From an uncultured Actinomycetes bacterium (GTDB lineage: Bacteria; Actinomycetota; Acidimicrobiia; IMCC26256; PALSA-610): 64,000 bases of DNA. The number at the start of each line of letters is the position of its first letter. The stretch's first letter is position 1. The translations under genes were made by a program, and so were the position numbers. The DNA lies in assembly GCA_963706745.1 (NCBI GenBank), contig CAVPMX010000004.1:1112375-1176374 (forward strand). Direction: 5' to 3'. Positions 6,252 to 58,717 of the stretch are shown here, piece after piece. Under the pieces are notes generated by a model. It was not told the DNA's origin. It saw nothing but the letters and a program-made list of their open reading frames with translations, and made no database searches.

Positions 6252-6252
6252 C

Positions 6253-14080: not shown

Positions 14081-14098
14081 GCCGGCGCCTCTCTCCCG

Positions 14099-15746: not shown

Positions 15747-15840
15747 TGGCCGCGCTCGGGTGCCTCCATGACGATTTCACACTGACGCGTCGCGCGGACC
15801 ACCTGTGCACACCCGAGGAATCCCCGCACCAGGAGGACAG

Positions 15841-16634: not shown

Positions 16635-16647
16635 CCACCCGGGCCGG

Positions 16648-17055: not shown

Positions 17056-17074
17056 GGGTCGTGTGCTCCTGTCC

Positions 17075-17836: not shown

Positions 17837-17894
17837 GGCCTCCCTCGTTCGTCAGCGCCGGCGACCTTCCGGCGTCAGCCGGTGCCGGACATGC

Positions 17895-18920: not shown

Positions 18921-19019
18921 TGCGAGCTCCTCTTCTCGGTCGGACCGGCTGCCCGACCGGACCCATGACTTAGTGACACTAACTCCCCCGGTCGCCTGGC
19001 TGCCAGACGCCTCGGGGCC

Positions 19020-19994: not shown

Positions 19995-20074
19995 CGACTC
20001 TCTCCCTCTCCGCCAAAGCGGTCACTTCACCTCCGGGCACGCAGCGGCGCGCACGGAGGTTCCGACTCCGACAC

Positions 20075-20575: not shown

Positions 20576-20662
20576 GACCGCGCTCCCGGACTCGGGCCGC
20601 CCCACCGGGTACGGGGCGTCGGCGGGAGTCTAAGTTAGGCAGACTAAGTCATGCAAGGGCGC

Positions 20663-21547
20663 TCACGTGCTGATCCGGATCGTGCACGACGTCTCGGGCA
20701 GGTGCGGGTCGAACTCCATCTTGATCGCGTCGGACCCGTCGAAGATCCTCTCGAAGACCCCCTTGCAGATGAGCAGGCAGCCCTGCTCCGGGAGAGCGTC
20801 GGGGTTCGGGAGCGACGCCGGGTCCGGGCAGGTGTGCCAGGCACAGCTCGGGACTTCCATCACTGCGCTGCCCGAGGCGGCGTCGATCTCGGTCACCTCC
20901 GACTCACCCACTAGGAAGCCGGCGAACCTGCCCGGGTCGAAGACCTCGAGCAGCCACTGCTTCAACGCACCGGGCTCGGCCGCACCCGCCGGGTCGCTCT
21001 CGCGCTTCTCCTTCGCCTTCCTAGCCCCCCGGTTCAGGAAATCGATCTCCTTCTGCGAGTCGATGCGAGCGAGGGCCGCTCCGGTGCCCACGACGATCTC
21101 CTCGTACTGCTTCTGCGTGAAGTGCTTGCGCAGCTCCAGGAGCGCCCACTCCGACTCTCGGACGAAGTTCCCGTAGATCTTCCGCCAGCGCTCGCGAGGC
21201 GAGTCCCACAACCTGATGGGCTCGCGTTGATCGTGGACCCGGATGTACGCAGCATCGACTGCTCCCGGATCGTCGGACGCGATGCGGATCATCGGCAGGT
21301 ACGTCATCTTGACGATCTGCTCGCCACGCTCGGCGATCATCCGCTTCGCCATGATCATGTCGATGAACGCCTGCAGCCCGTAGTTGTACGCGAAGCCCCG
21401 GCGGCGCGCAGCAGCGCCCGACGCCCCCTGTCGTACCGCGTCGCCCGAGGATGACGGAGCATCCGGGGCGCCCGTGGCCCCGACCCCGTGCGTCTCCGTG
21501 TGCGTCTCCGCGCGAGTCCCGGATCGCAGATCCTTGGCCGTCTTCAT
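20663..21547 (-). CDS. Hypothetical protein with C-terminal Cys-rich V4R/ATC-hydrolase-like domain
   Basis: EVPSCAW...C...GCLLICK...SCTIRI pattern; start abuts the upstream stop. Confidence 0.55.
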   Translation of the reverse strand: MKTAKDLRSGTRAETHTETHGVGATGAPDAPSSSGDAVRQGASGAAARRRGFAYNYGLQAFIDMIMAKRMIAERGEQIVKMTYLPMIRIASDDPGAVDAAYIRVHDQREPIRLWDSPRERWRKIYGNFVRESEWALLELRKHFTQKQYEEIVVGTGAALARIDSQKEIDFLNRGARKAKEKRESDPAGAAEPGALKQWLLEVFDPGRFAGFLVGESEVTEIDAASGSAVMEVPSCAWHTCPDPASLPNPDALPEQGCLLICKGVFERIFDGSDAIKMEFDPHLPETSCTIRIST

Positions 21548-21548
21548 C

Positions 21549-23783
21549 TCACGACTCCCTTCCGAGTGCATCGTCGGTCCACTGGCGGGTCGCACCCGAG
21601 AGAACGCCACGACCGCTCACAGCCTCATCCGTCGCCCGATACACGTTCACGGGGATCGCGCTCTGGAGCGCCAACCCGCTCACGGAGTCGAAGAGCTCGT
21701 CGTCGGGTATCAGGTACTGCACGTTCACCCCTCGGTCGTCTGGGCCGCCCCATCCGAATGCCAACGCCACCACGCCCGGGGGAAGGTCATCCGACGGCTC
21801 CACCTTCGCCACGACGCGCCCGAAACCGCTCTCGACGACGACCGGGTCGCCCGCCCCGACTCCGAGCGACTCCATGGCGGCCGGGTTGATCAGCGCGGGG
21901 TTGAAGGGCCGGCGGGCCGCGAGCGAGGGCAGGTTCTGCCCCTGCGTGCAGTACACCTCCTTGACGCGATACGTGATCAGACGGAAGCCGAACTCAGCCG
22001 TCCCCCCGTAACCGCCGCCGGCGACGACCGGCTCCGCGAGGACCTCGGCCAGCTCCGCGATCACGTCGGGGTGCCCGACCGCCATCGGACGATCGGCGTG
22101 ACCCGCCATCTGTGGGACCACGCCCCCGACCAGGGGGGTCCGGTCGCCCCAGACGTGGCCGTCGGGGTACCGCCGGATCTCGCTCATCGGTATGCGCGAC
22201 GTGGAGTTCAGAGCGTCGATCATCTCGTCGGCGGTGGGCTTCCTCCCCGGTTCGAGGCCGGGGAGGTCGAGGGAGAGACTGAGCCGTTCGGCCAACCCCC
22301 AGAACACCTCCCAGTCCTCGAGGACGCCCTCGGGCGCGTCGACGAGCGGTGGCGTGTACTGGCTGAACGGGAACGGATAGCTCGAGTCCATGAGCTTCGG
22401 CACGTCGGCACGCTCGAACGGGTGCTTCACCGCGAGCACGTAGTCGGCGTGCTGCGCCGTCGCAGTCATGAAGAGATCGTTCACGACCAACAACCGCAGC
22501 TCGCTCAATGCCAGCGCGGTGGACTCGGCGTCGGCGAAGGCGAGCGCCGGGTTCCCGCCGTGGACGATCAGGGCCTTGATCTGGCCGGCCCCTGGCGTGA
22601 GGATCTCGTCGGTGAGCGTGTTCGTCGGCATCTCCTCGAAGAAGCCGAGGTAGTTGAACGAGCCCTCGATCCCCCGGATCCGCGACTTGGGGCCCGTGTA
22701 CTCGGGGATCTTCACCGGACCGTCGAAGTCGGGCAGCTCGAAGTTGACCGCTCCGGCGTGTCGCGTGAGACCTCCGCGCCTGTCGTACCGTCCGCAGAGG
22801 ACGTTCAGCGTCATGACGAGCTGGGTGGCGAGGTTCTGATGGCGGGCCATGTGCAGGCCGGTGCCGCTCTGCGCTCCCCCGCTCGACGCCGTGGCGAACG
22901 CCGTCGCCGCGTCCCGCACCAGATCGGCCGGCACCTGACTGCGCTCGGCGACGTAGTCGAGGTCGAACCCGGAGACCGCCTCGCTCAGGAGACCGAAGCC
23001 GCTCGCGTGGTTCGCGACGTACTCGTGGTCGTAGAGGTCGCCGTCGATCACGACCTTGACCATCCCCGCGAGCAGCGTCGCGTCCTCGCCGGGCTTCACC
23101 TGCAGGTGGAAGTCGGCGAGGCGGGCGATCTCGCTCCGCCGCGGGTCGACGACGATGAGGCGCATCCCGCGCTTGCGGGCCTCCTGCACCCGGCGACGAG
23201 GGTCCGACTGCGGCATGCTCATGAAGTGCGACGTCAGCGGGTTGGTGCCGACGAACATCGCCACATCCGCATGGTCGATGTCGAGGAGCTGCAGTGGCAG
23301 CGGTGACCCGAACATCCGGGAGGCGGCCACGATCATGCTCGGCGAGTCGATGGTGAACGACGTGTACATCCGGCGCGACCCGAGCGCGTCGAGCCACTTG
23401 CTCACGAACGGCGGGCCCCCGGCAGCGGTGCGGTGCCCGCCGTCGCCCACGTACACGGCGACGGCGTCGGGACCGTGCTCGTCGACGATCGCAGCGATCT
23501 CCCGTGCGATCTCGTCGAGTGCCGGCTCCGCCGCGATGTCGACCATGACGCCGCCGACCCGCTTCTTCGACGACACCAGCCTGTCGGGGTGGTAGATGCG
23601 CTCGATCTCGGCGCGGCCCTTCACGCACGTGTAGCCGCGCGAGACGGCGTTGTCGGGGTCGCCTCGCACCGCGACGACCCTGCCGTCGCGCACGTCGACC
23701 TCCACGCCACAGAACGCGTGGCAGAACCGGCAGAACGACTTCTTCGTCTCCACCGGTCCAGATCCGTCGCTGTGCACCAGCAC
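21549..23783 (-). CDS. Molybdopterin (bis-MGD) oxidoreductase, DMSO reductase superfamily
   Basis: CRFCHAFCG...CVKG Fe-S motif, VVDPRRS, KPGED, C-terminal INP...GVGAGDPVVVES. Confidence 0.9.
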   Translation of the reverse strand: MLVHSDGSGPVETKKSFCRFCHAFCGVEVDVRDGRVVAVRGDPDNAVSRGYTCVKGRAEIERIYHPDRLVSSKKRVGGVMVDIAAEPALDEIAREIAAIVDEHGPDAVAVYVGDGGHRTAAGGPPFVSKWLDALGSRRMYTSFTIDSPSMIVAASRMFGSPLPLQLLDIDHADVAMFVGTNPLTSHFMSMPQSDPRRRVQEARKRGMRLIVVDPRRSEIARLADFHLQVKPGEDATLLAGMVKVVIDGDLYDHEYVANHASGFGLLSEAVSGFDLDYVAERSQVPADLVRDAATAFATASSGGAQSGTGLHMARHQNLATQLVMTLNVLCGRYDRRGGLTRHAGAVNFELPDFDGPVKIPEYTGPKSRIRGIEGSFNYLGFFEEMPTNTLTDEILTPGAGQIKALIVHGGNPALAFADAESTALALSELRLLVVNDLFMTATAQHADYVLAVKHPFERADVPKLMDSSYPFPFSQYTPPLVDAPEGVLEDWEVFWGLAERLSLSLDLPGLEPGRKPTADEMIDALNSTSRIPMSEIRRYPDGHVWGDRTPLVGGVVPQMAGHADRPMAVGHPDVIAELAEVLAEPVVAGGGYGGTAEFGFRLITYRVKEVYCTQGQNLPSLAARRPFNPALINPAAMESLGVGAGDPVVVESGFGRVVAKVEPSDDLPPGVVALAFGWGGPDDRGVNVQYLIPDDELFDSVSGLALQSAIPVNVYRATDEAVSGRGVLSGATRQWTDDALGRES

Positions 23784-26755: not shown

Positions 26756-26816
26756 CCCCTCGTTCTTGCGTCACTTTCTCGCGTCTGTCGCGAGAAAGTG
26801 ACGCAAGAACGAGGGG
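26756..26816. repeat. REP-like palindrome copy 1 (perfect 28-bp stem, 5-nt loop) between convergent genes
   Basis: CCCCTCGTTCTTGCGTCACTTTCTCGCG-TCTGT-CGCGAGAAAGTGACGCAAGAACGAGGGG. Confidence 0.92.
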
Positions 26817-38401: not shown

Positions 38402-38475
38402 TGGGCGGTACTGGACTCGAACCAGCGACCTCGTCGGTGTGAACGACGCGCTCTAGCCAACTGAGCTAACCGCCC
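38402..38475 (-). tRNA. tRNA-Val(CAC)
   Basis: GGGCGGTTAGCTCAGTTGG...CGTCG-TTCACAC-CGACG...GGTTCGAGTCC...ACCGCCCA; CCA not encoded. Confidence 0.95.
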
Positions 38476-39976: not shown

Positions 39977-40192
39977 GTGGCTAGGAAGGGACGAGCGCGC
40001 CGCTTCCGCGAAGCGCGCCAACTCAAGCAGGGCTACGACGACGGCCTCTTCGCCGAGGGCTCCGGAAGCCTCGCCGACGTCGCCGAATCGGATTCCGATG
40101 CCGACGAGGACGACGACTTCGACGACGACGAGAGCGACGACGCCGACGAGGCCGAGCCTGGGCTCGACTGGGATCCCGACCGCTCCGTCTGA
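39977..40192 (+). CDS. Small protein with basic N-terminus and acidic C-terminus
   Basis: GTG after GAGG/AGGTG; MARKGRARRFREARQLKQGY...DEDDDFDDDESDD. Confidence 0.55.
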   Translation: MARKGRARRFREARQLKQGYDDGLFAEGSGSLADVAESDSDADEDDDFDDDESDDADEAEPGLDWDPDRSV

Positions 40193-40282
40193 CTCCGACG
40201 CACGGGCACGAGGAGCGCTCCGACGACACTGTTGTCCGCGGAGAGTCGTACCGCTGACGGTCGTACCGCGGAGAGCGCCGTG

Positions 40283-42976
40283 CTACGTGCGCAGGGGGTC
40301 GGGTGCGTCGGCCGCCAGGCCGTAGCGCGTGATGGCGGCCTCGACCGCCGAGCTCGGCAGGCTGCCACCGGTCGAGAGCCCCGACAGCACCGCGACCACG
40401 ACGTGCGCTGCATCGACCTCGAAGTGCCTGCGCAGGGCGGCTCTCGTGTCGGAGAAGCCGAACCCGTCGGTGCCCAGGGGGACGAACGGCTGCGGCACGA
40501 AGCGCGCGATTCCCTCCGTGACCGACTTCACGAAGTCCGTGACGGCCACGACGGGCCCCGGCGAGTCGGCGAGCGCGCCGGTCACGTAGGCGACCCGCGG
40601 AGGCGCGCCGCGGGTGCAGCCGGTTCCAACGCTCGCACTCCCGTGCGTCGTCGCCGAGCTGCTTCCAACCCGGCACGCTCCACACGTCGGCGGCGACATC
40701 CCACTCCTCTCCGAGCATCTCCTGCGCCTCCAGCGCTGCGCGCATCGCAGACCCACTGGCAAGGATCTGAGCTCGATGGCGCCGCTCGGCCGTCGCCGGT
40801 CGGTAGAGGTACAAGCCGCGGACGATCGCCTCCTCGACGCCCTGGGGCATCGCTGGCTGCGGTGAGGTCTCGTTGTAGAGCGTCAGGTAGTAGAAGCAGT
40901 CTTCCGGCTCGGATCCGTACATGCGATCGATGCCGTCTCGCACGAGGACTCCCACCTCGTAGGCGAACGCCGGGTCGTAGGCGCGACAGCTCGGTACGGC
41001 AGATGCCAGCAGGAGACTCTGGCCGTCGCAGTGCTGGAGACCCTCGCCCTGGAGCGTCGTGCGGCCCGCCGTAGCCCCGATCAGGAACCCGCGGCCACGC
41101 ATGTCGCCGAACGCCCAGACGAGGTCGCCGACCCTCTGGAAGCCGAACATCGAGTAGAAGACGAAGAACGGGATCATCGGCTCGCCCCACGTCGCGTACG
41201 CCGTTCCCGCCGCAGTGAACGACGCCATGGAGCCGGCCTCGGTGATGCCCTCCATCAGTATCCGCCCGTCGCTGGCCTCGCGGTACGAGAGGAGCAGACC
41301 GGCGTCGACGGGCTCATAGCGCCTGCCCGAACGGCGCGTAGATCTTCGACGTCGGGGAAGAGCGCGTCGATGCCGAAGGTGCGTGCCTCGTCGGGGACGA
41401 TCGGCACGATCCTGCTACCGATGTCGGGGTCCCGCAGCAGCTCCCGCAGCAGGCGCGTGAACGCCATCGTCGTCGAGGCGTCGACACTTCCCGGCCGTGC
41501 CCGCACTCAGGTTCGCGGCCACGTCGGGGCGGACCGAGATCGGCCGGGTGGGGCGCTCGACCCGTTCGGGAACGAACCCGTCGAGCGCTCGGCGCCGCTC
41601 GGCCAGGTACCTGCACTCCGGCGACTCCTCCCCCGGGTGAACATAGGGTGGCAGTCCTTCTTCGAGAACGTCGTCGGGAATCTCGAGGTGCAGTCGGTCG
41701 CGGAACGCCTTCAGCTCCGCGACGGAGAGCTTCTTGATCTGATGGGTCGCGTTGCGCGCCTCGATGTCGGTCCCGAGCGTCCAGCCCTTCACCGTCTTCG
41801 CGAGGATCGCCGTCGGCGCACCCTCGTGCTCCACTGCCGCGCGATAGGCGGCGTGCACCTTCCGGTAGTCGTGTCCTCCGCGTGGCAGTCGCCGCAGGTC
41901 CTCGTCGGCGAGGCCCTCGACCATCTTGCGGAGTCGCGGGTCGGGTCCGAAGAAGTGCTCCCTGATGTACGCGCCGCTCTCGACCGCGTACTTCTGGAAC
42001 TCGCCGTCGAGGGTCGAGTTCATCTTGCCCACCAACACGCCGTCGACGTCGCGGGCCAGCAGCTCGTCCCACTCACGTCCCCACACGACCTTGACGACGT
42101 TCCATCCCGCTCCGCGGAAGCGCGGACTCGAGCTCCTGTATGACCTTCCCGTTGCCCCTCACCGGGCCGTCGAGGCGCTGGAGGTTGCAGTTGACGACGA
42201 AGGTCAGGTTGTCGAGCCGTTCCCGTGCCGCGATCGACAACCCCGCCAGCGACTCCGGCTCGTCCATCTCCCCGTCACCGACGAAGCACCACACGCGTGC
42301 GCGGCTCGTGTCGACCACGCGGTTGTGCAGCAGGTAGCGGTTGAATCGAGCCTGGTACACGGCGTTGAGCGGTCCGAGCCCCATCGAGACCGTAGGGAAC
42401 TCCCAGAAGTGCGGCGAGCGGCGCGGATGGGGGTACGAGGGCAGGCCGGCGCCTCCGACCTCGCGACGGAAGTGATCGAGGCGCTCCTCGGTCAGCCGAC
42501 CCTCGAGGAAGGCGCGTGCGTAGATCCCCGGGGCGGCGTGGCCCTGCACGAAGACCTGGTCGCCGAAGCCACCGTCGCCCTTCCCACGGAAGAAGTGGTT
42601 GAACCCGACCTCGTAAAGCGACGCCGCAGAGGCATACGTGGACAGGTGACCCCCGAGACCCTCGTCTCTCAGGTTCGCCCGTGCGACCATCGCCGCAGCG
42701 TTCCACCGCACGAACCGCCTGATGCGCCGCTCGATCTCCTCGTCGCCGGGGAACCACGGCTCTTCCTCGGCCGGGATCGTGTTGATGTAGTCGGTGGTGA
42801 CCGTCGCGGGGACAGGGACTCCCCTGTCGCGCGGCACGCTCGAGCAGGCGCGCCAGCAGATAGTGGGCGCGCGCCTTCCCACGTGTCTCGACCACGGCGT
42901 CGAGCGAGTCGAGCCACTCCGCCGTCTCTTGACGGTCGACGTCGGGTAGCTGGTGTACGGAGCCGTCGATGAACAC
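40283..42976 (-). CDS. aceE: Pyruvate dehydrogenase E1 component, homodimeric type (several frameshifts)
   Basis: [66 protein letters not shown]. Confidence 0.93.
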
Positions 42977-45609: not shown

Positions 45610-45683
45610 TGGGCGGTAGAGGACTCGAACCTCCGACCTCATGCGTGTCGAGCATGCGCTCTAACCAACTGAGCTAACCGCCC
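45610..45683 (-). tRNA. tRNA-Val(GAC)
   Basis: GGGCGGTTAGCTCAGTTGG...CATGC-TCGACAC-GCATG...GGTTCGAGTCC...ACCGCCCA. Confidence 0.93.
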
Positions 45684-46798: not shown

Positions 46799-48285
46799 AT
46801 GGACCTGACACTCGGCTTCCGTGAGCTGCTCGACGCGCTTCCCGACGCCATCGTCATCTCGTCGCCCGAGGGGTGCATCCTGCACGCGAACCGGCGCGCC
46901 GCCGAGCTCACCGGGTTCGCCGCCGCCGATCTCGTCGGACGCCCGGTCGAGGACCTGGTGCCGGAGCGGATGCGCGACACACACCTGCACCGCCGGTCGC
47001 TCTCGGGTGGCCGACCGGCCGCATCCCGGGCCATGGACGCCGGCATCGACTTCGTTCTGCTGCGGGCCGATGGGCGCGAAGTGCCCGTGGACATAGCGCT
47101 GAGCACGCTGAAGACCCCGGACGCCTCCTACGTCCTCAGCTGCCTCCGCGACGTCACCGACCGACACGAGACCGCGGCGAGGCTCCGCGCCGCCGTCGAG
47201 GTCAACGACGCGCTCCTCGCCGGGCAGGACTCCGACGACATCCTGCGGCTCGTCTGCGCCCGCCGCGCGAGCTGGTCCACGCCGATCTCGCGACCATCGC
47301 CGCACCGACCGAGGGCAATGAAGCGCTGACGATCCGCGTCGCCGTGGGTCGCTACGCCGACCGGGTCGAGGGCATGGTCTTCTCGTACGAGCAGTCGATC
47401 TCTGGAACCGTCATCCGCCGCGGCAAGGCCGAGGTGGTCGAGGACGCCGCCGCCGATGACCGCGTCTACCAGCCCGTCGTGGCAGTCGGCGAGATCGGTC
47501 CGGCGATCATCGTTCCACTTGCGGTCCGCGGCAGCGCGTTCGCGACGATCCTCGTCGCCAATGCTCGTGGGGGCCAGGCCTTCGACAAGCGCGAGCTGGA
47601 GCTCGTCGAGATGTTTGCTGCCCAGGCAGCGGTCACGCTCGAGTACGCGAGGGCGCAGCAGGAGCTCAGGCGCCTGATGGTGTTCGAGGATCGGGAGAGG
47701 ATCGCGCGCGACCTGCACGACACCGTCATCCAGCGCGTCTTCGCGATCGGGATGTCCCTGCAGGCGGCCTCCCACCTGATGCCGCCCGAGCTGGCAGCTC
47801 GGATAGACGACGCCGTCGACGAGCTCGACACGACGATCAAGGAGATCCGCTCGACGATCTTCGCTCTCGAGACTGCTCGGCGCGGCGGCGAGGGTGTCCG
47901 CGCCGACGTGCTGGGCCTCATCGGCGAGGCGTCACGCGGCCTCGGCTACGAACCGCGGGTGATCTTCGAGGGTGCCATCGACTCCTTGCTCTCAGTGGAG
48001 GCCGGCGAGCACCTCCTGGCGTCGCTACGCGAGGCGATCTCCAACGTCGCGCGTCATGCGCGGGCGACGCGGGCGGAGATCAGCGTCACTACGAACGACG
48101 GGGAGCTGCACCTGAAGGTCTCGGACGACGGCGTGGGGACCCCCAACGAATCCACGCTCCGCGGGTTGGGCCTCCGCAACATGGCCGAACGCGCCCGCAG
48201 CCTGGGCGGGAGCCTCGAGATCTCCTCCCCGGCCCGCGGGGGCACCGTCCTCGACTGGCGCGTCCCGCTCGACCGGACCGGCTGA
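46799..48285 (+). CDS. PAS-GAF sensor histidine kinase, HisKA_3 (DosS/DosT-like); frameshift near 47262
   Basis: PAS (LLDALPDAI...N..A..LTG), GAF, DRERIARDLHDTVIQR, REAISNVARHA, DDGVG, GLGLRNM. Confidence 0.88.
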
Positions 48286-48413: not shown

Positions 48414-48854
48414 CTACTCGTCGCCTGCGAGGCCGGCCCGTCGAGGCCCGAGCACCCTCCAGCGGGCCTCGGCCGTCGTCAGCAGCACTCCGTCGGCATC
48501 GCGCAGCTCGGCCTCCACCCAGACAGAGGGCCTCTCGACCCTCGTCGCCCTCGCGACTGCGACGAGGGGCGCCTCCACCGGGGCCGGCCGCCGGTACCTC
48601 AGCGAGAGCTCGACGGTGACGATCGCCATCTCGAGGTCGGTGTCGTCGACGGCGGCGTGGACGGCGAAGCCCATGACCTCGTCGAGGACCGTCGCTTGGA
48701 TGCCGCCGTGTGCGATGCCGGGACCGCCCTGGAAGTGGGCCGACAGCTCGACGTCGGCGCCGACCCAGCCCTCGGCGCGCACCGTCGTTCGGACCTGCAG
48801 GCCGTGGGGGTTCCCAGGGCCGCACCCGAAGCAGGTGCTCACCGCCTTCTCCAT
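48414..48854 (-). CDS. PaaI family thioesterase
   Basis: CFGCGPGNPHGL, GIAHGGIQATVLDE. Confidence 0.88.
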   Translation of the reverse strand: MEKAVSTCFGCGPGNPHGLQVRTTVRAEGWVGADVELSAHFQGGPGIAHGGIQATVLDEVMGFAVHAAVDDTDLEMAIVTVELSLRYRRPAPVEAPLVAVARATRVERPSVWVEAELRDADGVLLTTAEARWRVLGPRRAGLAGDE

Positions 48855-49062
48855 GGCGGGGCAGAGTACCGACAGCCACGCGTGGCATCCGAGCCGTGGG
48901 ACGGGCGGACGACGACTCCCCGCCGGCGACTCCGCACCGGTGCGTGGACCGCATCCGGTTCCGTTCCGGGCCGCGAACCCAGAGGACCCCGCCCAGGAGC
49001 AATGCTTTGCCTCGACCGACTGCCTGGCGTACAACGGCGCTCGACACCGACAAGGGAGGACG

Positions 49063-50436
49063 ATGACCGACGTCTCCGCTCTGCTCGCCGGCACTGTGCC
49101 GGCCGGTCACCTGCTGATCGGCCCGCAAGTCTCGGACGACTACTCCCACGACGAGTGCCTGACGGCGGAGCCGCAGATGCCCGCAGCCGTCGTCTGCCCG
49201 GAGACCGCCGCCGAGGTCGCGGCGATCCTGCGGGTCGCGAGCGCGAACGGCCTGCCGGTCACCGCCCGAGGCAGCGGGACCGGGCTCTCCGGCGCCTGCA
49301 TCCCGCAACCGGGCGGAATCGTCCTGTCGCTCGAGCGAATGAACAGGATCCGCGAGATCGACACCCAGAACCACGTCGCCGTCGTCGAGCCCGCGGTCAC
49401 CCTCACCGACCTCGACGAGGCCACCTCGGCCGTCGGGCTCGTCTACCCCGTCTACCCGGGCGAGATGGGCGGGTCGCTCGGCGGCAACGTCGCCACCAAC
49501 GCCGGCGGGATGCGAGCCGTCAAGTACGGCGTGACACGACACCAGGTGCTCGGCCTCGAAGCGGTGCTCGCCAGCGGCGAGATCATCCGGACCGGGGGGA
49601 AGTACGTCAAGGCCACGAGCGGCTACGACCTCACGCAGCTGATAACCGGCTCAGAAGGCACGCTCGCCGTCGTCACAGAGGTGACCGTCAAGCTGTACCC
49701 GCGCCCCGAGCACCAGACCATGGTCGTCGCACCGTTTGCGAGCCTCGCCGACCTAACCGGGGCCGTACCGCGCATCGTCACCAGCGGCGTCGGACCACTC
49801 GTTCTCGAGTACGCCGAGATGGGTTCGCTGATCGCCATAACGGGCGAGGCGGGGATCGACCTCGGAATCCCCTCCGACGTGCGTGAACGCGCCTTCGGGT
49901 GCCTGCTCCTGGTCGTGGAGGGGCACATGGAGGACCGGGTCGAGGAAGACGTCGCCACCGCCTGCGAGCTGCTCTACGCGCTCGGAGCCATCGACGCCTA
50001 TGTCCTGCCCGGGCACGCCTCCGCCCAGGTGCTCGACGCCCGCGAGAAGGCGTTCCACTTCGCCAAGCGCGCCGGGGCGCACGACATCGTCGACGTCGTC
50101 GTGCCGAGGGCGTCGATAGCCCCGTACCTCGCGACCGTCGCCGACCTGGCCGCGCAGCACGGGGCCCTGGTGGCGGGCCTCGGCCACGCCGGTGACGGGA
50201 ACGTGCACCTGTCGGTCTTCCAGCCCGACGCCGAGCGCCGATCGAGGCTGATGCGCGGGATCTTCGAGGCGGGCCTCGCCCTCGGCGGGGCGATCTCCGC
50301 CGAGCACGGGATCGGCTCGGAGAAGCGCGGCTACTTCCTCGATCTGGAGGACCCCGTCAAGATCGACTTGATGCGGGGGATCAAGGCCGCATTCGACCCG
50401 AATGGCATCCTCAACCCCGGAACCCTCCTCGACTGA
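49063..50436 (+). CDS. FAD-binding oxidoreductase (GlcD/D-lactate dehydrogenase family)
   Basis: RGSGTGLSG, GGNVATNAGG, GSEGTL, GHAGDGNVH, SAEHGIG. Confidence 0.92.
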   Translation: MTDVSALLAGTVPAGHLLIGPQVSDDYSHDECLTAEPQMPAAVVCPETAAEVAAILRVASANGLPVTARGSGTGLSGACIPQPGGIVLSLERMNRIREIDTQNHVAVVEPAVTLTDLDEATSAVGLVYPVYPGEMGGSLGGNVATNAGGMRAVKYGVTRHQVLGLEAVLASGEIIRTGGKYVKATSGYDLTQLITGSEGTLAVVTEVTVKLYPRPEHQTMVVAPFASLADLTGAVPRIVTSGVGPLVLEYAEMGSLIAITGEAGIDLGIPSDVRERAFGCLLLVVEGHMEDRVEEDVATACELLYALGAIDAYVLPGHASAQVLDAREKAFHFAKRAGAHDIVDVVVPRASIAPYLATVADLAAQHGALVAGLGHAGDGNVHLSVFQPDAERRSRLMRGIFEAGLALGGAISAEHGIGSEKRGYFLDLEDPVKIDLMRGIKAAFDPNGILNPGTLLD

Positions 50437-50453
50437 CCCCCCTCGCTCCACCA

Positions 50454-50514
50454 CCCCCCGTTCTTGCGTCACTTGCTCGCAACTATCGCGAGTAAGTGAC
50501 GCAAGAACGGGGGG
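50454..50514. repeat. REP-like palindrome copy 2
   Basis: CGTTCTTGCGTCACTTGCTCGC-AACTATC-GCGAGTAAGTGACGCAAGAACG. Confidence 0.9.
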
Positions 50515-50606
50515 GTGGGGTTGGGATTCCTAAACCGGGATATCCTGACTAGAGTTGCGAGCAACTGGTATCCCGCACTCGCGCGCAGTCACCCGAGGGG
50601 GCAGAC

Positions 50607-53445
50607 ATGGGCATCGCAGGCCGCACCACCGACGCTTTCAGGGGATCCGAGGATCAGTACCGGACCCGGTGGTCGTGGGACAGCGTCACGTGGGGCACCC
50701 ACTGCGTCGACTGCTACCCGGGGAACTGCCCGTACAAGGTCTTCGTGCGCGACGGCAAGGTCGTGCGCGAAGAGGTGGCAGGCAGCCACCGCACCATCGA
50801 GGAAGGCGTCCCCGACTTCAACCCGATGGGGTGCAACAAGGGCGCGTCGTGGAGCCAGAGCCTCTACGACGGTGACCGCCTCGTCTACCCGCTCAAGCGC
50901 GCAGGCGAGCGCGGCGAAGGCAAGTGGGAGCGCATCACCTGGGACGATGCCTGCACGATCATCGCCGACGCGATGCTCGACGCGATCGAGGCGGGTGGCC
51001 CCGAGGACATCGCGAGGGAGGGCACCCCCGAGATCGCAACCGTGGCACCCACCGAGAGGTTCTTCGGGACGATCGGCGGCCGCGCGATGGATCTGCACGC
51101 GTCGTTCAACGACTTCTCGATCGGCCTGCACGAGACGTACGGCAAGTTCTGCCCGGTCTCCTCGGGCGACGACTGGTTCAAGTCGGAACTCATCCTCATC
51201 TGGCACATGAACCCCGCCTTCACCCGCATCCCCCTCTACCACTTCATGCTCGAAGCCCGATACCACGGCGCCGAAGTCGTCTCCATCTCCCCCGACCTCA
51301 ACGCATCACACATGCACGCCGACTACCACGTCCCCGTCCCATCGGGCAACGACGTCCCCTTCGGCCTCGCAATGGTCCAAGTCATCCTCGAAGAAGGACT
51401 CGAGGACAAGACCTTCATCCGCGAGCAGACCGACCTCCCGTGCCTCGTGCGCACCGACAACAACCGGTACCTACGCCAGACCGACCTCGAAGGCGACGGC
51501 CGCGAAGACCAGCTCTACCACTGGGACCCCACCACCGGCGCCCCCACGAAAGCCGACCGCGGCAACCTCCTCCTCCACGGACGCGAGATCGCCCTCGAAG
51601 GCACCTACAACGTCACACTCCACGACGGCACCAAGGTCGAGGTCGAACCCGTCCTCGCACGCCTACGTCGCATGCTCGACGAGCAGTACACCCCCGAGAC
51701 CCAACAGGCCACCACCAACATCCACCCCGACCTCGTGCGCACCATCGCCCGCAAAGCCGCCACCAAGAAGACCAACATCATGTTGGGCTGGAACTCCTGC
51801 AAGTACTACCACGGCGACCTAATCGAACGAACCATGTGCCTCCTCCTCGCCGTCACCGGCAACTGGGGCAAGTTCGGCACCGGCATCCGCTCCTGGACCG
51901 CCGGCGTCATCGACGGCCAGGGAATGCTCATGGCGAAGCAGAGCCCCGGCGTGGAGGCCACCGAGCAGATCCTCACCATGCACGACACGATGGTCGACGC
52001 AATGCGTGCCGACGACCCGTCGCTCACATCGAAGGAGCTCGCGGCCAAGGAGATGCAGATCCGCATCCGCCAGGCCTCGGTGGAGTTCGCCAAGACAGAC
52101 GACGAGAACGACCCGTACGGGCGTCGCGGGTCGACGCCGTCGGTCGAGGCGTTCTGGTGGTACTGGCAGGCCGGCTACAAGGAGCGGTGGAACGAGAAGG
52201 ACTGGGGCGACAACACACTCCCCCGCAGCTTCGACGAGTACTTCGACGAGGCCCTCGCTGTCCGGGTGGTGGGCGGGTGTCGACGGACCGCGCCCCGACA
52301 CGCCGCCGAAGGTGCTGATCGAGTGCGGCGGCAACATGCTGCGCCGCACCCGCGGCGGCAAGACCGCTCTCCTCGACACGCTCTGGCCGAAGCTGAACCT
52401 GATCGTCTCGATCGACTTCCGCATCAACGCAACCGGGCTCTGGTCAGACATCCTGCTGCCCGCAGCCCAGCACTACGAGAAGCTCGCCTACCACATCCCC
52501 ACCCCGCACCAGATGATGATGACCTTCTCCGACAAGGCCGCCGAGCCCGCCGGAGAGGCCCTGCCCGAATGGGAGATCTACCAGCGCATCCTCAAGAAGT
52601 TCGAGGCGCGCGCGAAGGCACGCGGCATCGAGAACTACCAGACGCGCGACGGCGTACCGTTCAACACGCAGGACGCCTGGGACCGCTACACGATGGGCGG
52701 GAACATCGTCACCGAGGAGCAGATGGCCGACGAGATCGCCCGCGACGCGGCGTACATCGGCGTCATCCCCGAGGGAACGACCCTGCAGACGATGCGCGAG
52801 GAAGGCCATGTGCGCATCACAGGCTGGGGGATGTCGTTCTTCAGCCTCGCGCAGGCATCACCCGTCGAGAAGGAGCGCACGCACGCTCCGTTCCGCAACC
52901 ACGTCGAGATCGGCGACCCGTTCCCGACCTACTCGCGGCGCGCCCAGTTCTACATCGACCACCCGTGGTGGCTCGAGGCCGGCGAAGAGCTACCCGTCCA
53001 CAAGTCGAACCCGAAAGCCGGAGGCGACCACCCCCTACGCATGACCTCCGGGCACAACCGCTGGTCGATCCACTCGATGAACATGGCGAACCCCGTCCTG
53101 CTACAGACCCACCGCGGCGAACCCGCCGTCGAGATCAACCCCGACGACGCAGCAGCCCGCGGAGTGGCCGACGACGACCCGATCCGCATCTGGAACGACA
53201 TCTCGTCGTTCGTCTGCCGGGCGAAGATCGTCCAAGGCGTCATGCCCGGCCAGATCATCTCCTACAACGGATGGGACCCGCACCAGTACCAGGACAACAT
53301 GGGAGCCAACGAGATCGAGGCCGGCATGGTCAAGTGGATCGCCTTCGCCGGCGGCTACGGCCACATCAACTACACCTCAGCGGAGTGGCAGCCGATCCCC
53401 ACCGACCGCGGCGTCCCCTGCAACTTCGAGAAGGTCACCGCCTAA
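50607..53445 (+). CDS. DMSO reductase family type II molybdoenzyme alpha subunit (EbdA/S25dA-like), copy 1; +1 frameshift near 52259
   Basis: GTHCVDCYPGNC...PMGCNKG FS0 motif, SFNDFS (likely Mo-ligand Asp), DILLPAAQHYEK, HNRWSIHS. Confidence 0.85.
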
Positions 53446-53458
53446 CCCCCTCCCCGCT

Positions 53459-53509
53459 CGTTCTTGCGTCACTTACTCGCAACTATCGCGAGTAAGTGAC
53501 GCAAGAACG
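53459..53509. repeat. REP-like palindrome copy 3
   Basis: CGTTCTTGCGTCACTTACTCGC-AACTATC-GCGAGTAAGTGACGCAAGAACG. Confidence 0.9.
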
Positions 53510-53606
53510 GGGAGGTGGGGTTGGGATTCCTAAACCGGGATATCCTGACTAGAGTTGCGAGCAACTGGCAACCCGCACTCGCGCGCAGTCACCCGAGGGG
53601 GCAGAC

Positions 53607-56459
53607 ATGGGCATCGCAGGCCGCACCACCGACGCTTTCAGGGGATCCGAGGATCAGTACCGGACCCGGTGGTCGTGGGACAGCGTCACGTGGGGCACCC
53701 ACTGCGTCGACTGCTACCCGGGGAACTGCCCGTACAAGGTCTTCGTGCGCGACGGCAAGGTCGTGCGCGAAGAGGTGGCAGGCAGCCACCGCACCATCGA
53801 GGAAGGCGTCCCCGACTTCAACCCGATGGGGTGCAACAAGGGCGCCTCGTGGAGCCAGAGCCTCTACGACGGTGACCGCCTCGTCTACCCGCTCAAGCGC
53901 GCAGGCGAGCGCGGCGAAGGCAAGTGGGAGCGCATCACCTGGGACGATGCCTGCACGATCATCGCCGACGCGATGCTCGATGTGATCGAGGCGGGTGGCC
54001 CCGAGGACATCGCCCACGAGGGCACCCCAGAAGTCGCGACGGTGATGCCGACGGGCCGCTTCTTCGGTGCGATCGGCGGCCGCTCGATGGATCTGCACGC
54101 GTCGTTCAACGACTTCTCGATCGGCCTGCACGAGACGTACGGCAAGTTCTGCCCGGTCTCCTCGGGCGACGACTGGTTCAAGTCGGAACTCATCCTCATC
54201 TGGCACATGAACCCCGCCTTCACCCGCATCCCCCTCTACCACTTCATGCTCGAAGCCCGATACCACGGCGCCGAAGTCGTCTCCATCTCCCCCGACCTCA
54301 ACGCATCACACATGCACGCCGACTACCACGTCCCCGTCCCATCGGGCAACGACGTCCCCTTCGGCCTCGCAATGGTCCAAGTCATCCTCGAAGAAGGACT
54401 CGAGGACAAGACCTTCATCCGCGAGCAGACCGACCTCCCGTGCCTCGTGCGCACCGACAACAACCGGTACCTACGCCAGACCGACCTCGAAGGCGACGGC
54501 CGCGAAGACCAGCTCTACCACTGGGACCCCACCACCGGCGCCCCCACGAAAGCCGACCGCGGCAACCTCCTCCTCCACGGACGCGAGATCGCCCTCGAAG
54601 GCACCTACAACGTCACACTCCACGACGGCACCAAGGTCGAGGTCGAACCCGTCCTCGCACGCCTACGTCGCATGCTCGACGAGCAGTACACCCCCGAGAC
54701 CCAACAGGCCACCACCAACATCCACCCCGACCTCGTGCGCACCATCGCCCGCAAAGCCGCCACCAAGAAGACCAACATCATGTTGGGCTGGAACTCCTGC
54801 AAGTACTACCACGGCGACCTAATCGAACGAACCATGTGCCTCCTCCTCGCCGTCACCGGCAACTGGGGCAAGTTCGGCACCGGCATCCGCTCCTGGACCG
54901 CCGGCACGATGGACGGCTCCGGGATGCTCTCGATGAAGAGCGGGCCCGGAGTGGAGGCCACCGAGCAGGTCATCGCTGCCCGCGACGGCGCCATCGCGAT
55001 GATTCAGGCGGCCGACCCGTCGGTCACCTCCGAGGAGCTCGCAGCCAAGGAGCTCCAGTGGCGCATGCGCGAGGCGGGAGGCCGCGCAGGGATGATGGCC
55101 GGTGCCAGTGCCGCGAAAGACGGCAAGGGGCACCGAGGGCGCCACGACAGGTTCAATGTGGAGGCGTTCTGGTGGTACTGGCAGGCCGGCTACAAGGAGC
55201 GGTGGAACAAGAAGGACTGGGGCGACAACACACTCCCCCGCAGCTTCGACGAGTACTTCGACGAGGCCCTCGCGTCCGGGTGGTGGGACGGCGTGGCTGG
55301 GCCGACGCCCGAGTACCCGCCCAGGATGCTGATCGAGTGCGGCGGCAACATGCTGCGCCGCACCCGCGGCGGCAAGACCGCTCTCCTCGACACGCTCTGG
55401 CCGAAGCTGAACCTGATCGTCTCGATCGACTTCCGCATCAACGCAACCGGGCTCTGGTCAGACATCCTGCTGCCCGCAGCCCAGCACTACGAGAAGCTCG
55501 CCTACCACATCCCCACCCCGCACCAGATGATGATGACCTTCTCCGACAAGGCCGCCGAGCCCGCCGGAGAGGCCCTGCCCGAATGGGAGATCTACCAGCG
55601 CATCCTCAAGAAGTTCTCCGAGCGCGCCAAGGCCCGCGGCATCGAGACCTACAAGGGCCGTGACGGCACGGAGTACAACACGCAGGATGCCTGGGAGCGC
55701 TACACGCTGGGCGGGAACATCGTCACCGAGGAGCAGATGGCCGACGAGATCGCCCGCGACGCGGCGTACATCGGCGTCATCCCCGGCGACACGACCCTGC
55801 AGACGATGCGCGAGAAGGGCCATGTGCGCATCACAGGCTGGGGGATGTCGTTCTTCAGCCTCGCGCAGGCATCACCCGTCGAGAAGGAGCGCACACACAC
55901 CCCGTTCCGCAACCACATCGAGATCGGCGACCCGTACCCCACCTACTCGCGGCGCGCCCAGTTCTACATCGACCACCCGTGGTGGCTCGAGGCCGGCGAA
56001 GAGCTACCCGTCCACAAGCCGAACCCGAAAGCCGGAGGCGACCACCCCCTACGCATGACCTCCGGGCACAACCGCTGGTCGATCCACTCGATGAACATGG
56101 CGAACCCGGTCCTGCTCCAGACCCACCGCGGCGAACCCGCCGTCGAGATCAACCCCGACGACGCCGCAGCCCGCGGAGTGGCCGACGACGACCCGATCCG
56201 CATCTGGAACGACATCTCGTCGTTCGTCTGCCGGGCGAAGATCGTCCAAGGCGTCATGCCCGGCCAGATCATCTCCTACAACGGATGGGACCCGCACCAG
56301 TACCAGGACAACATGGGAGCCAACGAGATCGAGGCCGGCATGGTCAAGTGGATCGCCTTCGCCGGCGGCTACGGCCACATCAACTACACGATGGCCGAGT
56401 GGCAGCCGATCCCCACCGACCGCGGCGTCCCCTGCAACTTCGAGAAGGTCACCACGTAA
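53607..56459 (+). CDS. DMSO reductase family type II molybdoenzyme alpha subunit (EbdA/S25dA-like), copy 2, intact 950 aa
   Basis: Same motifs as copy 1; no twin-arginine leader visible. Confidence 0.88.
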   Translation: MGIAGRTTDAFRGSEDQYRTRWSWDSVTWGTHCVDCYPGNCPYKVFVRDGKVVREEVAGSHRTIEEGVPDFNPMGCNKGASWSQSLYDGDRLVYPLKRAGERGEGKWERITWDDACTIIADAMLDVIEAGGPEDIAHEGTPEVATVMPTGRFFGAIGGRSMDLHASFNDFSIGLHETYGKFCPVSSGDDWFKSELILIWHMNPAFTRIPLYHFMLEARYHGAEVVSISPDLNASHMHADYHVPVPSGNDVPFGLAMVQVILEEGLEDKTFIREQTDLPCLVRTDNNRYLRQTDLEGDGREDQLYHWDPTTGAPTKADRGNLLLHGREIALEGTYNVTLHDGTKVEVEPVLARLRRMLDEQYTPETQQATTNIHPDLVRTIARKAATKKTNIMLGWNSCKYYHGDLIERTMCLLLAVTGNWGKFGTGIRSWTAGTMDGSGMLSMKSGPGVEATEQVIAARDGAIAMIQAADPSVTSEELAAKELQWRMREAGGRAGMMAGASAAKDGKGHRGRHDRFNVEAFWWYWQAGYKERWNKKDWGDNTLPRSFDEYFDEALASGWWDGVAGPTPEYPPRMLIECGGNMLRRTRGGKTALLDTLWPKLNLIVSIDFRINATGLWSDILLPAAQHYEKLAYHIPTPHQMMMTFSDKAAEPAGEALPEWEIYQRILKKFSERAKARGIETYKGRDGTEYNTQDAWERYTLGGNIVTEEQMADEIARDAAYIGVIPGDTTLQTMREKGHVRITGWGMSFFSLAQASPVEKERTHTPFRNHIEIGDPYPTYSRRAQFYIDHPWWLEAGEELPVHKPNPKAGGDHPLRMTSGHNRWSIHSMNMANPVLLQTHRGEPAVEINPDDAAARGVADDDPIRIWNDISSFVCRAKIVQGVMPGQIISYNGWDPHQYQDNMGANEIEAGMVKWIAFAGGYGHINYTMAEWQPIPTDRGVPCNFEKVTT

Positions 56460-56467
56460 CCCCCCCT

Positions 56468-56518
56468 CGTTCTTGCGTCACTTACTCGCAACTATCGCGA
56501 GTAAGTGACGCAAGAACG
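56468..56518. repeat. REP-like palindrome copy 4
   Basis: Core identical to copy 3; 8 nt after the TAA stop, between convergent genes. Confidence 0.9.
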
Positions 56519-56529
56519 GGTCAGGCGGG

Positions 56530-56967
56530 TCAGTGGGAGCGCAGCCTGACGGCGACCGCCGCCACGGCCACCACGCCCCAGGCGATCGCGAGCACTGTCA
56601 GGGTCGCGGTGCCGTAGTCGAGTGGTTGGATGGTGGGATTCCGAGCACGCGCGGCGGTGTTGCGCAGCGGCGCTGCGGCGACGATCAGGACCACGCCGCT
56701 CGCGATCAACGCCGCCTGGAGAGCGGGCCGCACCCGCCGCGGCGCCACACGCTCGACGACCACCCCGACGAGCACGAGCAGCGGGACGAACAGCAGGTCG
56801 TGCAGGAGCGCGGCACCCGCGAGAAAGATCGCGAAGTTGCCGCGGCGGGCCAGGTCGGGGGTCGCGTCGAAAAAGAGCCTGCCACCCCAGGCCATGAGCG
56901 ACCCTCCGACCGCAGCGCAGACCCAGAAACGAGCTCCGTGCTCGCTCTGCCCACCCTCGCTCTTCAC
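56530..56967 (-). CDS. Hypothetical membrane protein (~4 TM)
   Basis: LLHDLLFVP, NPTIQPLDY; GTG overlaps the upstream stop. Confidence 0.7.
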   Translation of the reverse strand: MKSEGGQSEHGARFWVCAAVGGSLMAWGGRLFFDATPDLARRGNFAIFLAGAALLHDLLFVPLLVLVGVVVERVAPRRVRPALQAALIASGVVLIVAAAPLRNTAARARNPTIQPLDYGTATLTVLAIAWGVVAVAAVAVRLRSH

Positions 56968-58118
56968 GCGGTCACCTCCACTCGCGTCACCCACTTGGTC
57001 TGATGCACACCGGGACGGTTCGGGCCGATCAGCCTCACCGGGAATCCGTGATCCGCAGCGAGCACCTCGCCGTTCACCCTCAGTGCGAGGAGGGTTCCAC
57101 GATCGCGCGCCTGGCCGGCATTGACAGGCGACGTCCTCTGCCGCGGATTGTCGTGCATCGCGTACACGATCGCCTCGGAGCCTCTGTCGGCTCCCGCAAG
57201 ATCGAACAGGTCGCGCAGCGGGACTCCGGTCCAGCGTTGTGAGGTGCTCCATCCCTCGACGCACGCGATCGGGAGCGTCTCGGTCCTCTGCGGCAGCGCC
57301 TCCAGATCCGCGTACGTGAGCTCCAGGGGCTGCGTCACACCCGGGCCGTCGACGTGCAGCCGCCACGTCGCCAAGTCGACATCGTCGAGGCCGACAGAGC
57401 CGGCAGTCCGGTTGACGGGGAAGCCCTGAGGGCCGACGTCGGGGCGCCGGGGCGCGAGCAGCGCGATCTTGCGGAGCGGCTCGAACGCCTGGCCGACGGT
57501 GACGAGTGCCAGGAGCCCAGCGGAACCGAAGACGGTAGCCAGAAACCCCCGGCGGTCGAGGCCACCGTCGCTCGACGAGCCGGTCTGCTCATCGACCGTC
57601 TGACCGACTGCCGCCCGGATCGCCGTCCACTTCGCTCCCACGTGAACGACCATCCCTCCGATCACGATCCACGCCGCGGCGTAGTGACCGCTTCGGAACG
57701 AGAACGTCCAGGGCCGCCACAAGTTCACGTTCGCGAGCCCGGTGAACAGGAGCAGGATCCCACCGCCGACGAGCGGCAGCAGGGCCAGTCGTTCGACCGC
57801 GTGCGCGATCGAGCGCACCGGCGGCCACTCGAACAGGTTCGGGTATACCGCCCACATCTTGGCCAGGAGCAACGGAATCGACGCGATCCCCATCGTCACG
57901 TGCAGACCCTGTGTGAACCGGTAGAGACCTGCAGGGCGCGCCGGCCAGGAGAACCAGCCGGGCGGATTCTGCGAGACGTGTGAGAGCACTCCCGTTGCGA
58001 AGCACACCGTGAAGGCGACTCCGAGTGCGACTCCGAGAACAGCGGCCACCCGCTCGTCGTGCAGGACACTGCGGAACTCGGGGCGCGTCGATGCGATCCG
58101 TCGGAGACGACTGCTCAT
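56964..58118 (-). CDS. Membrane-anchored sulfite-oxidase-family (MsrP-like) molybdopterin oxidoreductase
   Basis: N-terminal TM segments with His, then LPIACVEGWS, WTGVPL, DHGFPVRLI, TKWV. Confidence 0.85.
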   Translation of the reverse strand: MSSRLRRIASTRPEFRSVLHDERVAAVLGVALGVAFTVCFATGVLSHVSQNPPGWFSWPARPAGLYRFTQGLHVTMGIASIPLLLAKMWAVYPNLFEWPPVRSIAHAVERLALLPLVGGGILLLFTGLANVNLWRPWTFSFRSGHYAAAWIVIGGMVVHVGAKWTAIRAAVGQTVDEQTGSSSDGGLDRRGFLATVFGSAGLLALVTVGQAFEPLRKIALLAPRRPDVGPQGFPVNRTAGSVGLDDVDLATWRLHVDGPGVTQPLELTYADLEALPQRTETLPIACVEGWSTSQRWTGVPLRDLFDLAGADRGSEAIVYAMHDNPRQRTSPVNAGQARDRGTLLALRVNGEVLAADHGFPVRLIGPNRPGVHQTKWVTRVEVTA

Positions 58119-58717
58119 CGGCGCACCGCTTCGAGTCGGGCGAACCAACGATCTCCACAGCTCCACTGCTCGCAGCACTCGAAGCCCGCTGACGCCGAGA
58201 CGCCGTCGAGGTCGTCGGCCGCGACCGAGGTCCAGGGGAACCACGGTCCCGCGTCACCGTCGACGATCACCCGCGCCCGGTCGTCGAACCCTGCCGACCC
58301 GGGCGCCTCGGTCTCCACGAGTACTCGCCCACCCGGAGCGAGAAGACGCCGCACGCGCTGGAGCAGCACGACCGGATCCCCGCCGATTCCGAGATTGCCG
58401 TCGAGTAGCAGCGCTGTCTCCCACCTTCCCGCTCCGGGGATGCGATCGAAGACCGAGCGTTGGAGCACGGTCGCTCCGCGCTCGCGCGCCACACGAAGCG
58501 CCGACGGCGTGATGTCGATCCCCAGGGCCACGAATCCGCGCTCCGACAGGGCGAGCGTGTGGCGAGCCGGCCCGCAGCCGATGTCGAGCACCGCGGGAAC
58601 GGCGTGTGCCAGAACGGTGTGGTCGGCCTCACCGAGCGGACCGGTCCAGCGACAGATCGAGGCTGATTCCCGCCGTTCGAGCTGAAGGCTCCCGCGCACC
58701 ACATCCTCACTCGGCAC
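58115..58717 (-). CDS. Class I SAM-dependent methyltransferase
   Basis: VLDIGCGPARH, LGIDIT, LLDGNLGIGGDP; start approximate. Confidence 0.85.
   Translation of the reverse strand: MPSEDVVRGSLQLERRESASICRWTGPLGEADHTVLAHAVPAVLDIGCGPARHTLALSERGFVALGIDITPSALRVARERGATVLQRSVFDRIPGAGRWETALLLDGNLGIGGDPVVLLQRVRRLLAPGGRVLVETEAPGSAGFDDRARVIVDGDAGPWFPWTSVAADDLDGVSASAGFECCEQWSCGDRWFARLEAVRR

Follow-up and report, generated by a model that had tools for sequence, protein, structure and literature searches.

The join points of duplications associated with repetitive extragenic palindromic (REP) elements were reportedly the subject of a classic study in Salmonella, and integron arrays offer a second setting in which genes on the same strand each have a palindromic element behind them as the border of the unit. 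The attC sites of integrons are imperfect palindromes with RYYYAAC and GTTRRRY core sites and extrahelical bases. For high-GC Actinobacteria, tail-less hairpin terminators have been proposed. Here we compare with these systems a locus of an uncultured Actinomycetes bacterium (assembly GCA_963706745.1, contig CAVPMX010000004.1), in which three copies of one palindrome alternate with two genes predicted to encode the alpha subunit of a molybdoenzyme. The locus lies in a stretch of 64,000 nucleotides (nt) that was analysed as a whole and is called the window below; its G+C content is 69.4%. An earlier reading of this DNA, hereafter the original prediction, had named REP-type repeats as possible end points of the duplication, in keeping with PMC8763031, according to which REP elements help duplications to arise, of 18-49 kb on F'128. 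On the side of the enzyme, PMC6016249 describes eight alpha paralogues of steroid C25 dehydrogenase (S25DH) in Sterolibacterium denitrificans, of which alpha1 was produced with beta3 and gamma3.

The locus reads palindrome, leader and gene, palindrome, leader and gene, palindrome, with both genes on the same strand. Its parts, together with a fourth copy of the palindrome found elsewhere in the window, are given here.

50454..50514, no strand: palindrome 1; arms 50459-50480 and 50488-50509 with one mismatch, 7-nt loop
50510..50606, plus strand: leader of unit 1, 97 nt from palindrome to ATG
50607..53445, plus strand: gene 1, predicted alpha subunit with Mo-bisPGD (molybdenum with two pyranopterin guanine dinucleotides), like that of ethylbenzene dehydrogenase (EBDH) and S25DH; frame broken
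53448..53520, no strand: palindrome 2, the junction copy; arms 53459-53480 and 53488-53509, perfect, 7-nt loop
53510..53606, plus strand: leader of unit 2, 97 nt from palindrome to ATG
53607..56459, plus strand: gene 2 (protein P0001), intact, 950 amino acids (aa), predicted EBDH/S25DH-like alpha subunit
56468..56518, no strand: palindrome 3; arms 56468-56489 and 56497-56518, perfect over 22 nt, 7-nt loop
26755..26817, no strand: palindrome 4 (core 26761-26811); extended arms of 29 nt, perfect, 5-nt loop

The unit starts are spaced 3000 nt apart, and palindromes 2 and 3 are spaced 3009 nt apart. The original prediction had placed palindromes at about 50460, 53460 and 56468, alternating with an upstream region and a gene, and all three were found. 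It had also described near-identical upstream regions of about 95 bp with a shared ribosome-binding site; the 97-nt leaders indeed differ from each other at only 3 positions, and a GAGGGGG Shine-Dalgarno-like run stands ahead of the ATG in both.

Homology between the two units starts at the left edge of palindrome 1, beyond which the end of a GlcD-like gene is set against the end of gene 1, and it ends at the right edge of palindrome 3, beyond which a leader is set against the terminal part of a convergent gene; past these borders the two sequences are unrelated. The boundaries of the duplication coincide with the palindromes, as had been claimed. Palindrome 2 is a hybrid: its left flank, together with the 3' end of the gene before it, matches palindrome 3 apart from substitutions and an indel of 5 nt, and on the other side the right flank and the leader that follows match palindrome 1. 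The two ends and the joint thus have one repeat in common, and at the joint it is a combination of the outer two, which is the pattern that marks a duplication by unequal exchange. The hybrid nature of palindrome 2 and the position of the homology borders at the palindromes argue for a tandem duplication that was joined inside the flanking repeat.

The divergence between the units is strongly uneven. Over the whole alignment 213 of 3099 columns differ, the differences being strongly clustered: between blocks with 57-91% identity lie tracts of 821, 290, 274 and 224 nt in which the units are identical. When the differences were shuffled 10000 times, the longest identical run obtained was 204 nt, against the 821 nt observed; at third codon positions, in the first half that is free of gaps, the longest identical run counts 279 positions, and 0 of 10000 shuffles reached it. 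The two extremes of the pattern are adjacent to each other.

51085..51905 (= 54085-54905 in unit 2), plus strand: longest identical tract, 821 nt, read as a gene-conversion tract
51906..52312, plus strand: most divergent tract, about 57-88% nucleotide identity, with in-frame indels of 9+4+2 nt

In blocks of 40 codons, the synonymous divergence (dS) is 0 in codons 1-40, 81-120, 161-400, 596-635 and 876-915, and codons 41-80 hold a single synonymous difference (dS 0.04). Codons 121-160 have a dS of 0.54, with a ratio of nonsynonymous to synonymous divergence (dN/dS) of 0.26, and codons 441-515, which form the main gap-free stretch of the most divergent tract (up to about 52150), have a dS of 0.51-0.96 and a dN/dS of 0.73-0.82. 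Since identical tracts lie beside tracts with a dS of 0.5-1, neither unit is a fresh copy of the other. Where no conversion has taken place, the distance from copy to copy is as large as the distance to homologues in other genomes: within the variable surface loop that the most divergent tract encodes (residues 440-520), identity is 47% between the copies and 51-57% to P0004, a homologue at 80% identity from another metagenome-assembled genome (MAG), and over residues 121-160 copy 1 is 98% identical to P0004 and only 82% identical to copy 2. Gene conversion between tandem paralogues is an established process, and the simplest reading of the mosaic, judged from the sequence, would be an older pair of paralogues that gene conversion is re-homogenising. 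That the copies differ mainly in the variable loop could mean that they have different substrate ranges. The loop of copy 2 (residues 480-515 of P0001) is rich in Gly, Ala and Arg and 5 residues longer than that of copy 1; EbdA has nothing that corresponds to it, and from homologue to homologue it is hypervariable. It is a matter of speculation that polishing with multi-mapped reads could have exaggerated the identical tracts in part.

Taken together, we regard as probable, although by no means certain, a repeat-mediated tandem duplication joined in the palindrome and followed by divergence and gene conversion. The layout is what we observe; the event behind it would have begun with a single ancestral gene flanked by two copies of the palindrome family. 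Unequal homologous recombination between the flanking palindromes, or template switching stimulated by the hairpin, would then have taken place within the 51-62 bp repeat, leaving the order palindrome, gene, palindrome, gene, palindrome with a hybrid middle copy. The copies would afterwards have diverged in some tracts, and gene conversion would have kept other tracts alike, along with the leaders and the palindromes.

The resemblance to duplications at enterobacterial REP elements and bacterial interspersed mosaic elements (BIMEs) lies in the short extragenic palindrome that flanks the duplicated segment on either side and recurs at its joint, and in the hybrid nature of the copy found there. 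The duplicated segment here is, however, one gene of 3 kb, and its two copies have had time to diverge and to undergo partial conversion. The palindrome is also unrelated to REP in sequence and has no Rfam match, and the RAYT protein, BIME clustering and high copy number are features of REP. On the reading that we prefer, the locus would show in clean, natural form how one gene of an uncultured, high-GC lineage of Actinobacteria was duplicated in tandem through a join in a short extragenic palindrome and then subjected to gene conversion; the mechanism is ordinary, and little that is new about it is to be learned from the locus.

The palindromes themselves stand far outside chance expectation. 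Their 22-nt arm has 8 matches in the window at no more than 3 mismatches (two arms at each of four sites), with 0.02 expected by chance, and this count was reached in 0 of 100 shuffles. In palindromes 1-3 the stems are lengthened to 27-33 nt by a run of C at their left and one of G at their right; palindrome 4 differs from these three by a compensated A-to-T / T-to-A change in the stem and by its loop. As RNA, the palindromes have folding energies between -52.7 and -71.8 kcal/mol (z-scores -11.2 to -12.7), and none of 200 shuffles folded as well. A covariance model built from these and related hairpins, run with filters off, found exactly four sites in the window (next-best E = 0.59) and no further diverged members of the family, and the 64-kb window holds no other long near-perfect hairpins. 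Searched against Rfam at the gathering threshold, the whole window gave only two tRNAs, and in 50380-50640 a permissive search yielded nothing but generic matches to microRNA hairpins, far under the cut-offs.

All four copies are extragenic, between open reading frames (ORFs), and start 22, 13, 8 and 5 nt (copies 1, 2, 3 and 4) after the preceding stop codon. For palindrome 1 this is the stop codon of the upstream FAD-linked oxidase gene. Palindrome 3, which follows the stop of gene 2, ends 11 nt before the stop of a convergent minus-strand gene, and palindrome 4 follows an unrelated small ORF and has a minus-strand ORF on its other side.

Members of the family were also found beyond the locus. 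We scanned 185,579 species genomes other than the source genome for sites with the outermost 12 nt of each arm and any centre between them, and obtained five loci with one strict match each, four of them in Actinomycetota. The closest, from an Acidimicrobiia MAG, can be aligned with the window copies over 64-68 bp, G run included, at an identity of 84-87%; it lies 3' of an AhpC/TSA-family gene, and its flanks are non-homologous to the window. Three further loci from Actinomycetota MAGs (L001-L003) have only the 12-15 bp base of the hairpin in common with the window copies, their tops being different and self-complementary.

About positions 1996-2053 of L001-L003: hairpins beside gcvP, DinB/MDMPI genes and a multihaem cytochrome gene

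The fifth locus, from a Muribaculaceae genome, may be a chance hairpin. Within the family the base of 12-15 bp is conserved and the top varies with compensating changes. That four of the five loci are from Actinomycetota suggests a lineage-wide hairpin family. Neither a blastn search of the palindrome against plasmids nor one of the palindrome and leader against phages gave a match, and a non-exhaustive literature search by keyword found nothing on this palindrome.

The original prediction had likened the locus to an integron, with the palindrome as the exchange site of an expandable array of cassettes, and had noted that no recombinase was visible in the window. The latter observation agrees with our Pfam scan, which covered the 64 kb through 61 ORFs chosen by a codon-position GC heuristic: none of them matched an integrase, recombinase or transposase family, and no RAYT (Y1 transposase) was among them. 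As in integron arrays, the genes are on the same strand and each is followed by a palindromic element that marks the unit border. Unlike in integrons, there is no intI, no attI and no attC core site, and the palindrome is perfect; judged by eye, its outer ends depart from the core consensus of attC, and its arms are perfect or have one mismatch. Each unit moreover has its own leader, while integron cassettes are promoterless, and there are only two units, which are paralogues of each other and not unrelated genes.

The palindrome also occurs beside unrelated genes. None of the five loci of the genome scan adjoins a molybdoenzyme homologue, and no palindrome lies beside the second molybdoenzyme gene of the window (21549-23783), so that the palindrome is not tied to alpha-subunit genes. 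With no recombinase match among the 61 ORFs, no attC resemblance and a palindrome that stands beside unrelated genes, an integron-like system is not supported. The proposed exchange site fared better in part: a join inside the palindrome is what the hybrid palindrome 2 indicates, but an expandable array is not supported by two units of mosaic divergence, which point to an older pair of paralogues and not to an actively amplifying array.

The quality of the assembly bears on how the locus is read. At 52259, gene 1 has a single surplus T that shifts the frame (GCTGTCC, where gene 2 has GC-GTCC). Its N-terminal part is in the frame of 50607 and its conserved C-terminus is in the frame that ends at TAA 53443-53445; the long ORF that runs to 53495 is nonsense beyond residue 551, and the true end of the gene is this TAA and not the ORF end. 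The public record has P0001 and a separate protein of 369 aa, identical to the C-terminal part of gene 1, on one contig of 1.64 Mb. Other genes of the window are split over several frames as well.

40023-42976, minus strand: broken gene
7403-9425, plus strand: broken gene
5078-7399, plus strand: broken gene
46799-48285, plus strand: broken gene
56530-58244, minus strand: broken gene, the convergent neighbour of the locus

Among the genes affected, aceE is in four ORF pieces (model positions 3-49, 290-464, 564-780 and 779-883) and an oxidoreductase of the old yellow enzyme (OYE)/FadH type is in three (model positions 2-230, 285-428 and 478-644); acyl-CoA dehydrogenases, a PAS/GAF histidine kinase and the convergent sulfite-oxidase-family gene are apparently split too. 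An essential gene in pieces points to indel errors of the assembly, and the split genes of the window look like such errors rather than mass pseudogenisation. For gene 1, too, an assembly error is more likely than a true pseudogene; an initial reading of it as a pseudogene was withdrawn, aceE and other genes of the window being broken as well.

Errors of this kind raise the question of whether the tandem itself could be false, two strain variants of one palindrome-bordered gene having been threaded serially through the repeat. An identical 51-nt palindrome on both sides of a gene makes a loop in the assembly graph, the units resemble diverged alleles with long identical stretches, the unit spacing is exactly 3000 nt, and the assembly is, as the many broken genes indicate, error-prone. 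Even so, we hold such an artefact to be distinctly unlikely: the length of the contig and the indel-type errors suggest long reads, which would be able to span 6 kb, the units differ in places at up to 43% of nucleotides and by in-frame indels, above what is usual for co-assembled strains, and the junction copy has a left flank of its own, set apart from that of palindrome 3 by the 5-nt indel and the substitutions. A recent duplication in situ, joined in the palindrome, with patchy replacement in one copy by DNA of a diverged strain, would explain the bimodal pattern of zero-difference tracts beside tracts of dS 0.5-1, as well as the closeness of copy 1 to P0004 in codons 121-160. It would, however, require separate imports for at least five divergent patches, neither copy is consistently nearer the outgroup across the patches, and gene conversion between tandem paralogues is simpler; we consider this course of events unlikely, if still worth keeping in view.

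Mobility of the cassette type, in which the palindrome would be a site-specific recombination site and the units would have been inserted separately as circular cassettes, hence their differences, accounts for the exact delimitation of the units by the palindrome, and their divergence is enough for separate acquisitions. Hairpins with the same 12-15 bp base do occur in four other Actinomycetota MAGs in unrelated contexts, and two family members 3 kb apart around one gene exceed the density elsewhere in the window. Against it stand the empty scan of the 61 ORFs for recombinases, integrases and transposases, the perfect and symmetric hairpin with neither extrahelical bases nor attC-like core sites, the leader in each unit, and the lack of matches in plasmid and phage collections; the fourth copy and those in other genomes border no cassette-like gene and no molybdoenzyme, and the tracts of dS = 0 need gene conversion anyway. 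We therefore think it extremely improbable. Scarcely better placed, and still very unlikely in our view, is a broader form of the idea, in which an undescribed Actinomycetota hairpin family would be a recombination site unrelated to integrons, served by a recombinase in trans, and single catabolic genes would be acquired, duplicated and exchanged as hairpin-bordered units.

The repeat-mediated duplication that we prefer has its own weak points. The tandem arrangement is taken from the assembly, and two family copies within 3 kb around the ancestral gene are a little more than one would expect. With an old duplication (dS up to about 1), the palindromes would owe their near-identity to homogenisation at a later time, and today's borders may differ from those of the first join. 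The divergent patches could be imports from another strain into a recent duplication, for which the 98% identity of copy 1 to P0004 in codons 121-160, against 82% to copy 2, may be cited. Of the four copies in 64 kb, three are at the molybdoenzyme locus; with a single member outside it, and one strict match in each of the other genomes, a high-copy REP-like family is not evident from these counts.

As to what the hairpin does, its family lies mostly just 3' of stop codons, and it most likely shapes transcript 3' ends; it could terminate transcription without a tail, hold back exonucleases or be a substrate of RNase III. Like the tail-less terminators of Actinobacteria, it is a strong hairpin right after stops, or between convergent genes, without a U tract. 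It differs from them in the recurrence of one sequence at four sites, a behaviour foreign to ordinary terminators, and in its perfect stem of 22-33 bp, which is far longer than typical. Downstream of the hairpins the sequence is G-rich and has no U/T tract of the sort that defines a rho-independent terminator, and a terminator scan of 50000-57000 gave 6 terminator-like sites, none at a palindrome; termination is thus a role that we only infer.

Each leader holds a second, small palindrome of the 6-2-6 type, AGTTGC GA GCAACT (50551-50564 and 53551-53564), just after a TAGAGT hexamer, and it could be an operator that overlaps a -10-like element. A promoter consensus scan of 50000-57000, leaders included, found none. 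An 8-mer common to the small palindrome and the top of the hairpin was judged to be due to chance, as it is absent from the fourth palindrome copy. A gene for a PAS/GAF sensor kinase of the HisKA_3 type lies about 2-4 kb upstream of the small palindrome.

By its sequence, each of the two genes is predicted to encode the catalytic alpha subunit of a cytoplasmic EBDH/S25DH-like enzyme of the type II dimethyl sulfoxide (DMSO) reductase family. P0001 has the Pfam domains Molybdopterin (PF00384, 1.6e-34) and Molydop_binding (PF01568, 1.4e-17). Its match to TIGR03479, the type II DMSO reductase alpha model, is strong (E = 1e-250, 834.6 bits) and under the cut-off of 984.75, and its match to the EbdA equivalog model (4.2e-207) reaches 690 bits against a cut-off of 2000; P0001 is thus a relative of the TIGR03479 and EbdA families and not a member by NCBI thresholds. 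The closest solved structure is EbdA (2ivf_A, 1.7e-195). The alignments begin at model position 40 and at EbdA residue 54, past the twin-arginine translocation (Tat) leader, from which it follows that P0001 has no Tat leader. An FS0 motif is formed by H32, C36, C41 and C76, and Asp169 aligns with the Asp of the IGDTY stretch of EbdA, which we take to be the molybdenum ligand.

At least 120 homologues of P0001 were found, with 55-80% identity among the matches listed; the top one, at 80%, is from an Acidimicrobiia MAG. The named homologues among those listed are mostly from Acidimicrobiia and Chloroflexota (Dehalococcoidia), with some from Gammaproteobacteria, and one is named steroid C-25 hydroxylase alpha subunit in its Joint Genome Institute (JGI) source. 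A tblastn search against plasmids returned 11 records, all below 60% identity and each covering less than half of the query, with no useful context; they are chlorate and nitrate reductase alpha subunits. For two of the homologues, P0098 and P0122, the longest contig has the same length of 41468 nt, so that one gammaproteobacterial contig may also carry two paralogues. The enzyme is a member of a large uncharacterised clade of leaderless EBDH-like alpha subunits; a non-exhaustive keyword search of the literature found nothing on leaderless EBDH-like enzymes of Acidimicrobiia.

The original prediction had spoken of self-contained enzyme cassettes, a description that has to be narrowed. None of the 61 ORFs scanned with Pfam encodes a beta, gamma or chaperone subunit, and none of the six frames of the window contains a ferredoxin-type CxxCxxCxxxC motif; without partner genes in the window, each unit is an alpha-subunit gene and not a complete enzyme. 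By analogy with known enzymes, the alpha subunits presumably pair with beta and gamma subunits encoded elsewhere. S25DH of S. denitrificans and EbdA of Aromatoleum belong to the same enzyme subfamily as P0001, and S. denitrificans likewise has several alpha paralogues in its genome with partner subunits encoded elsewhere, according to PMC6016249. P0001 differs from both in having no Tat leader, in falling under the TIGR03479 cut-off and in the lack of beta, gamma and chaperone genes within 64 kb.

The genes on either side of the locus, and other features of the window, are given last.

48616..50436, plus strand: upstream neighbour, GlcD-like FAD-linked oxidase
56530..58244, minus strand: convergent neighbour, sulfite-oxidase-family molybdenum domain with a cytochrome b561-like N-terminus, apparently split over two frames
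21549-23783, minus strand: second Mo-bisPGD enzyme, 744 aa, with an Fe4S4 domain; ends the cluster at 9429-23783 and adjoins two ORFs without a Pfam match
38402-38475, minus strand: tRNA gene
45610-45683, minus strand: tRNA gene

The true start of the upstream GlcD-like ORF is probably further downstream, as its domains begin at residue 189. The cluster at 9429-23783 is catabolic and resembles those of lipid or steroid degradation, with two family III CoA-transferases, an AMP-ligase, short-chain dehydrogenases/reductases (SDRs), SnoaL-like proteins, a 3-beta-hydroxysteroid dehydrogenase (3-beta-HSD)/epimerase and an amidohydrolase_2 protein. The first of the two tRNA genes overlaps the over-extended 5' end of an ORF for the ATPase of an ATP-binding cassette (ABC) transporter.

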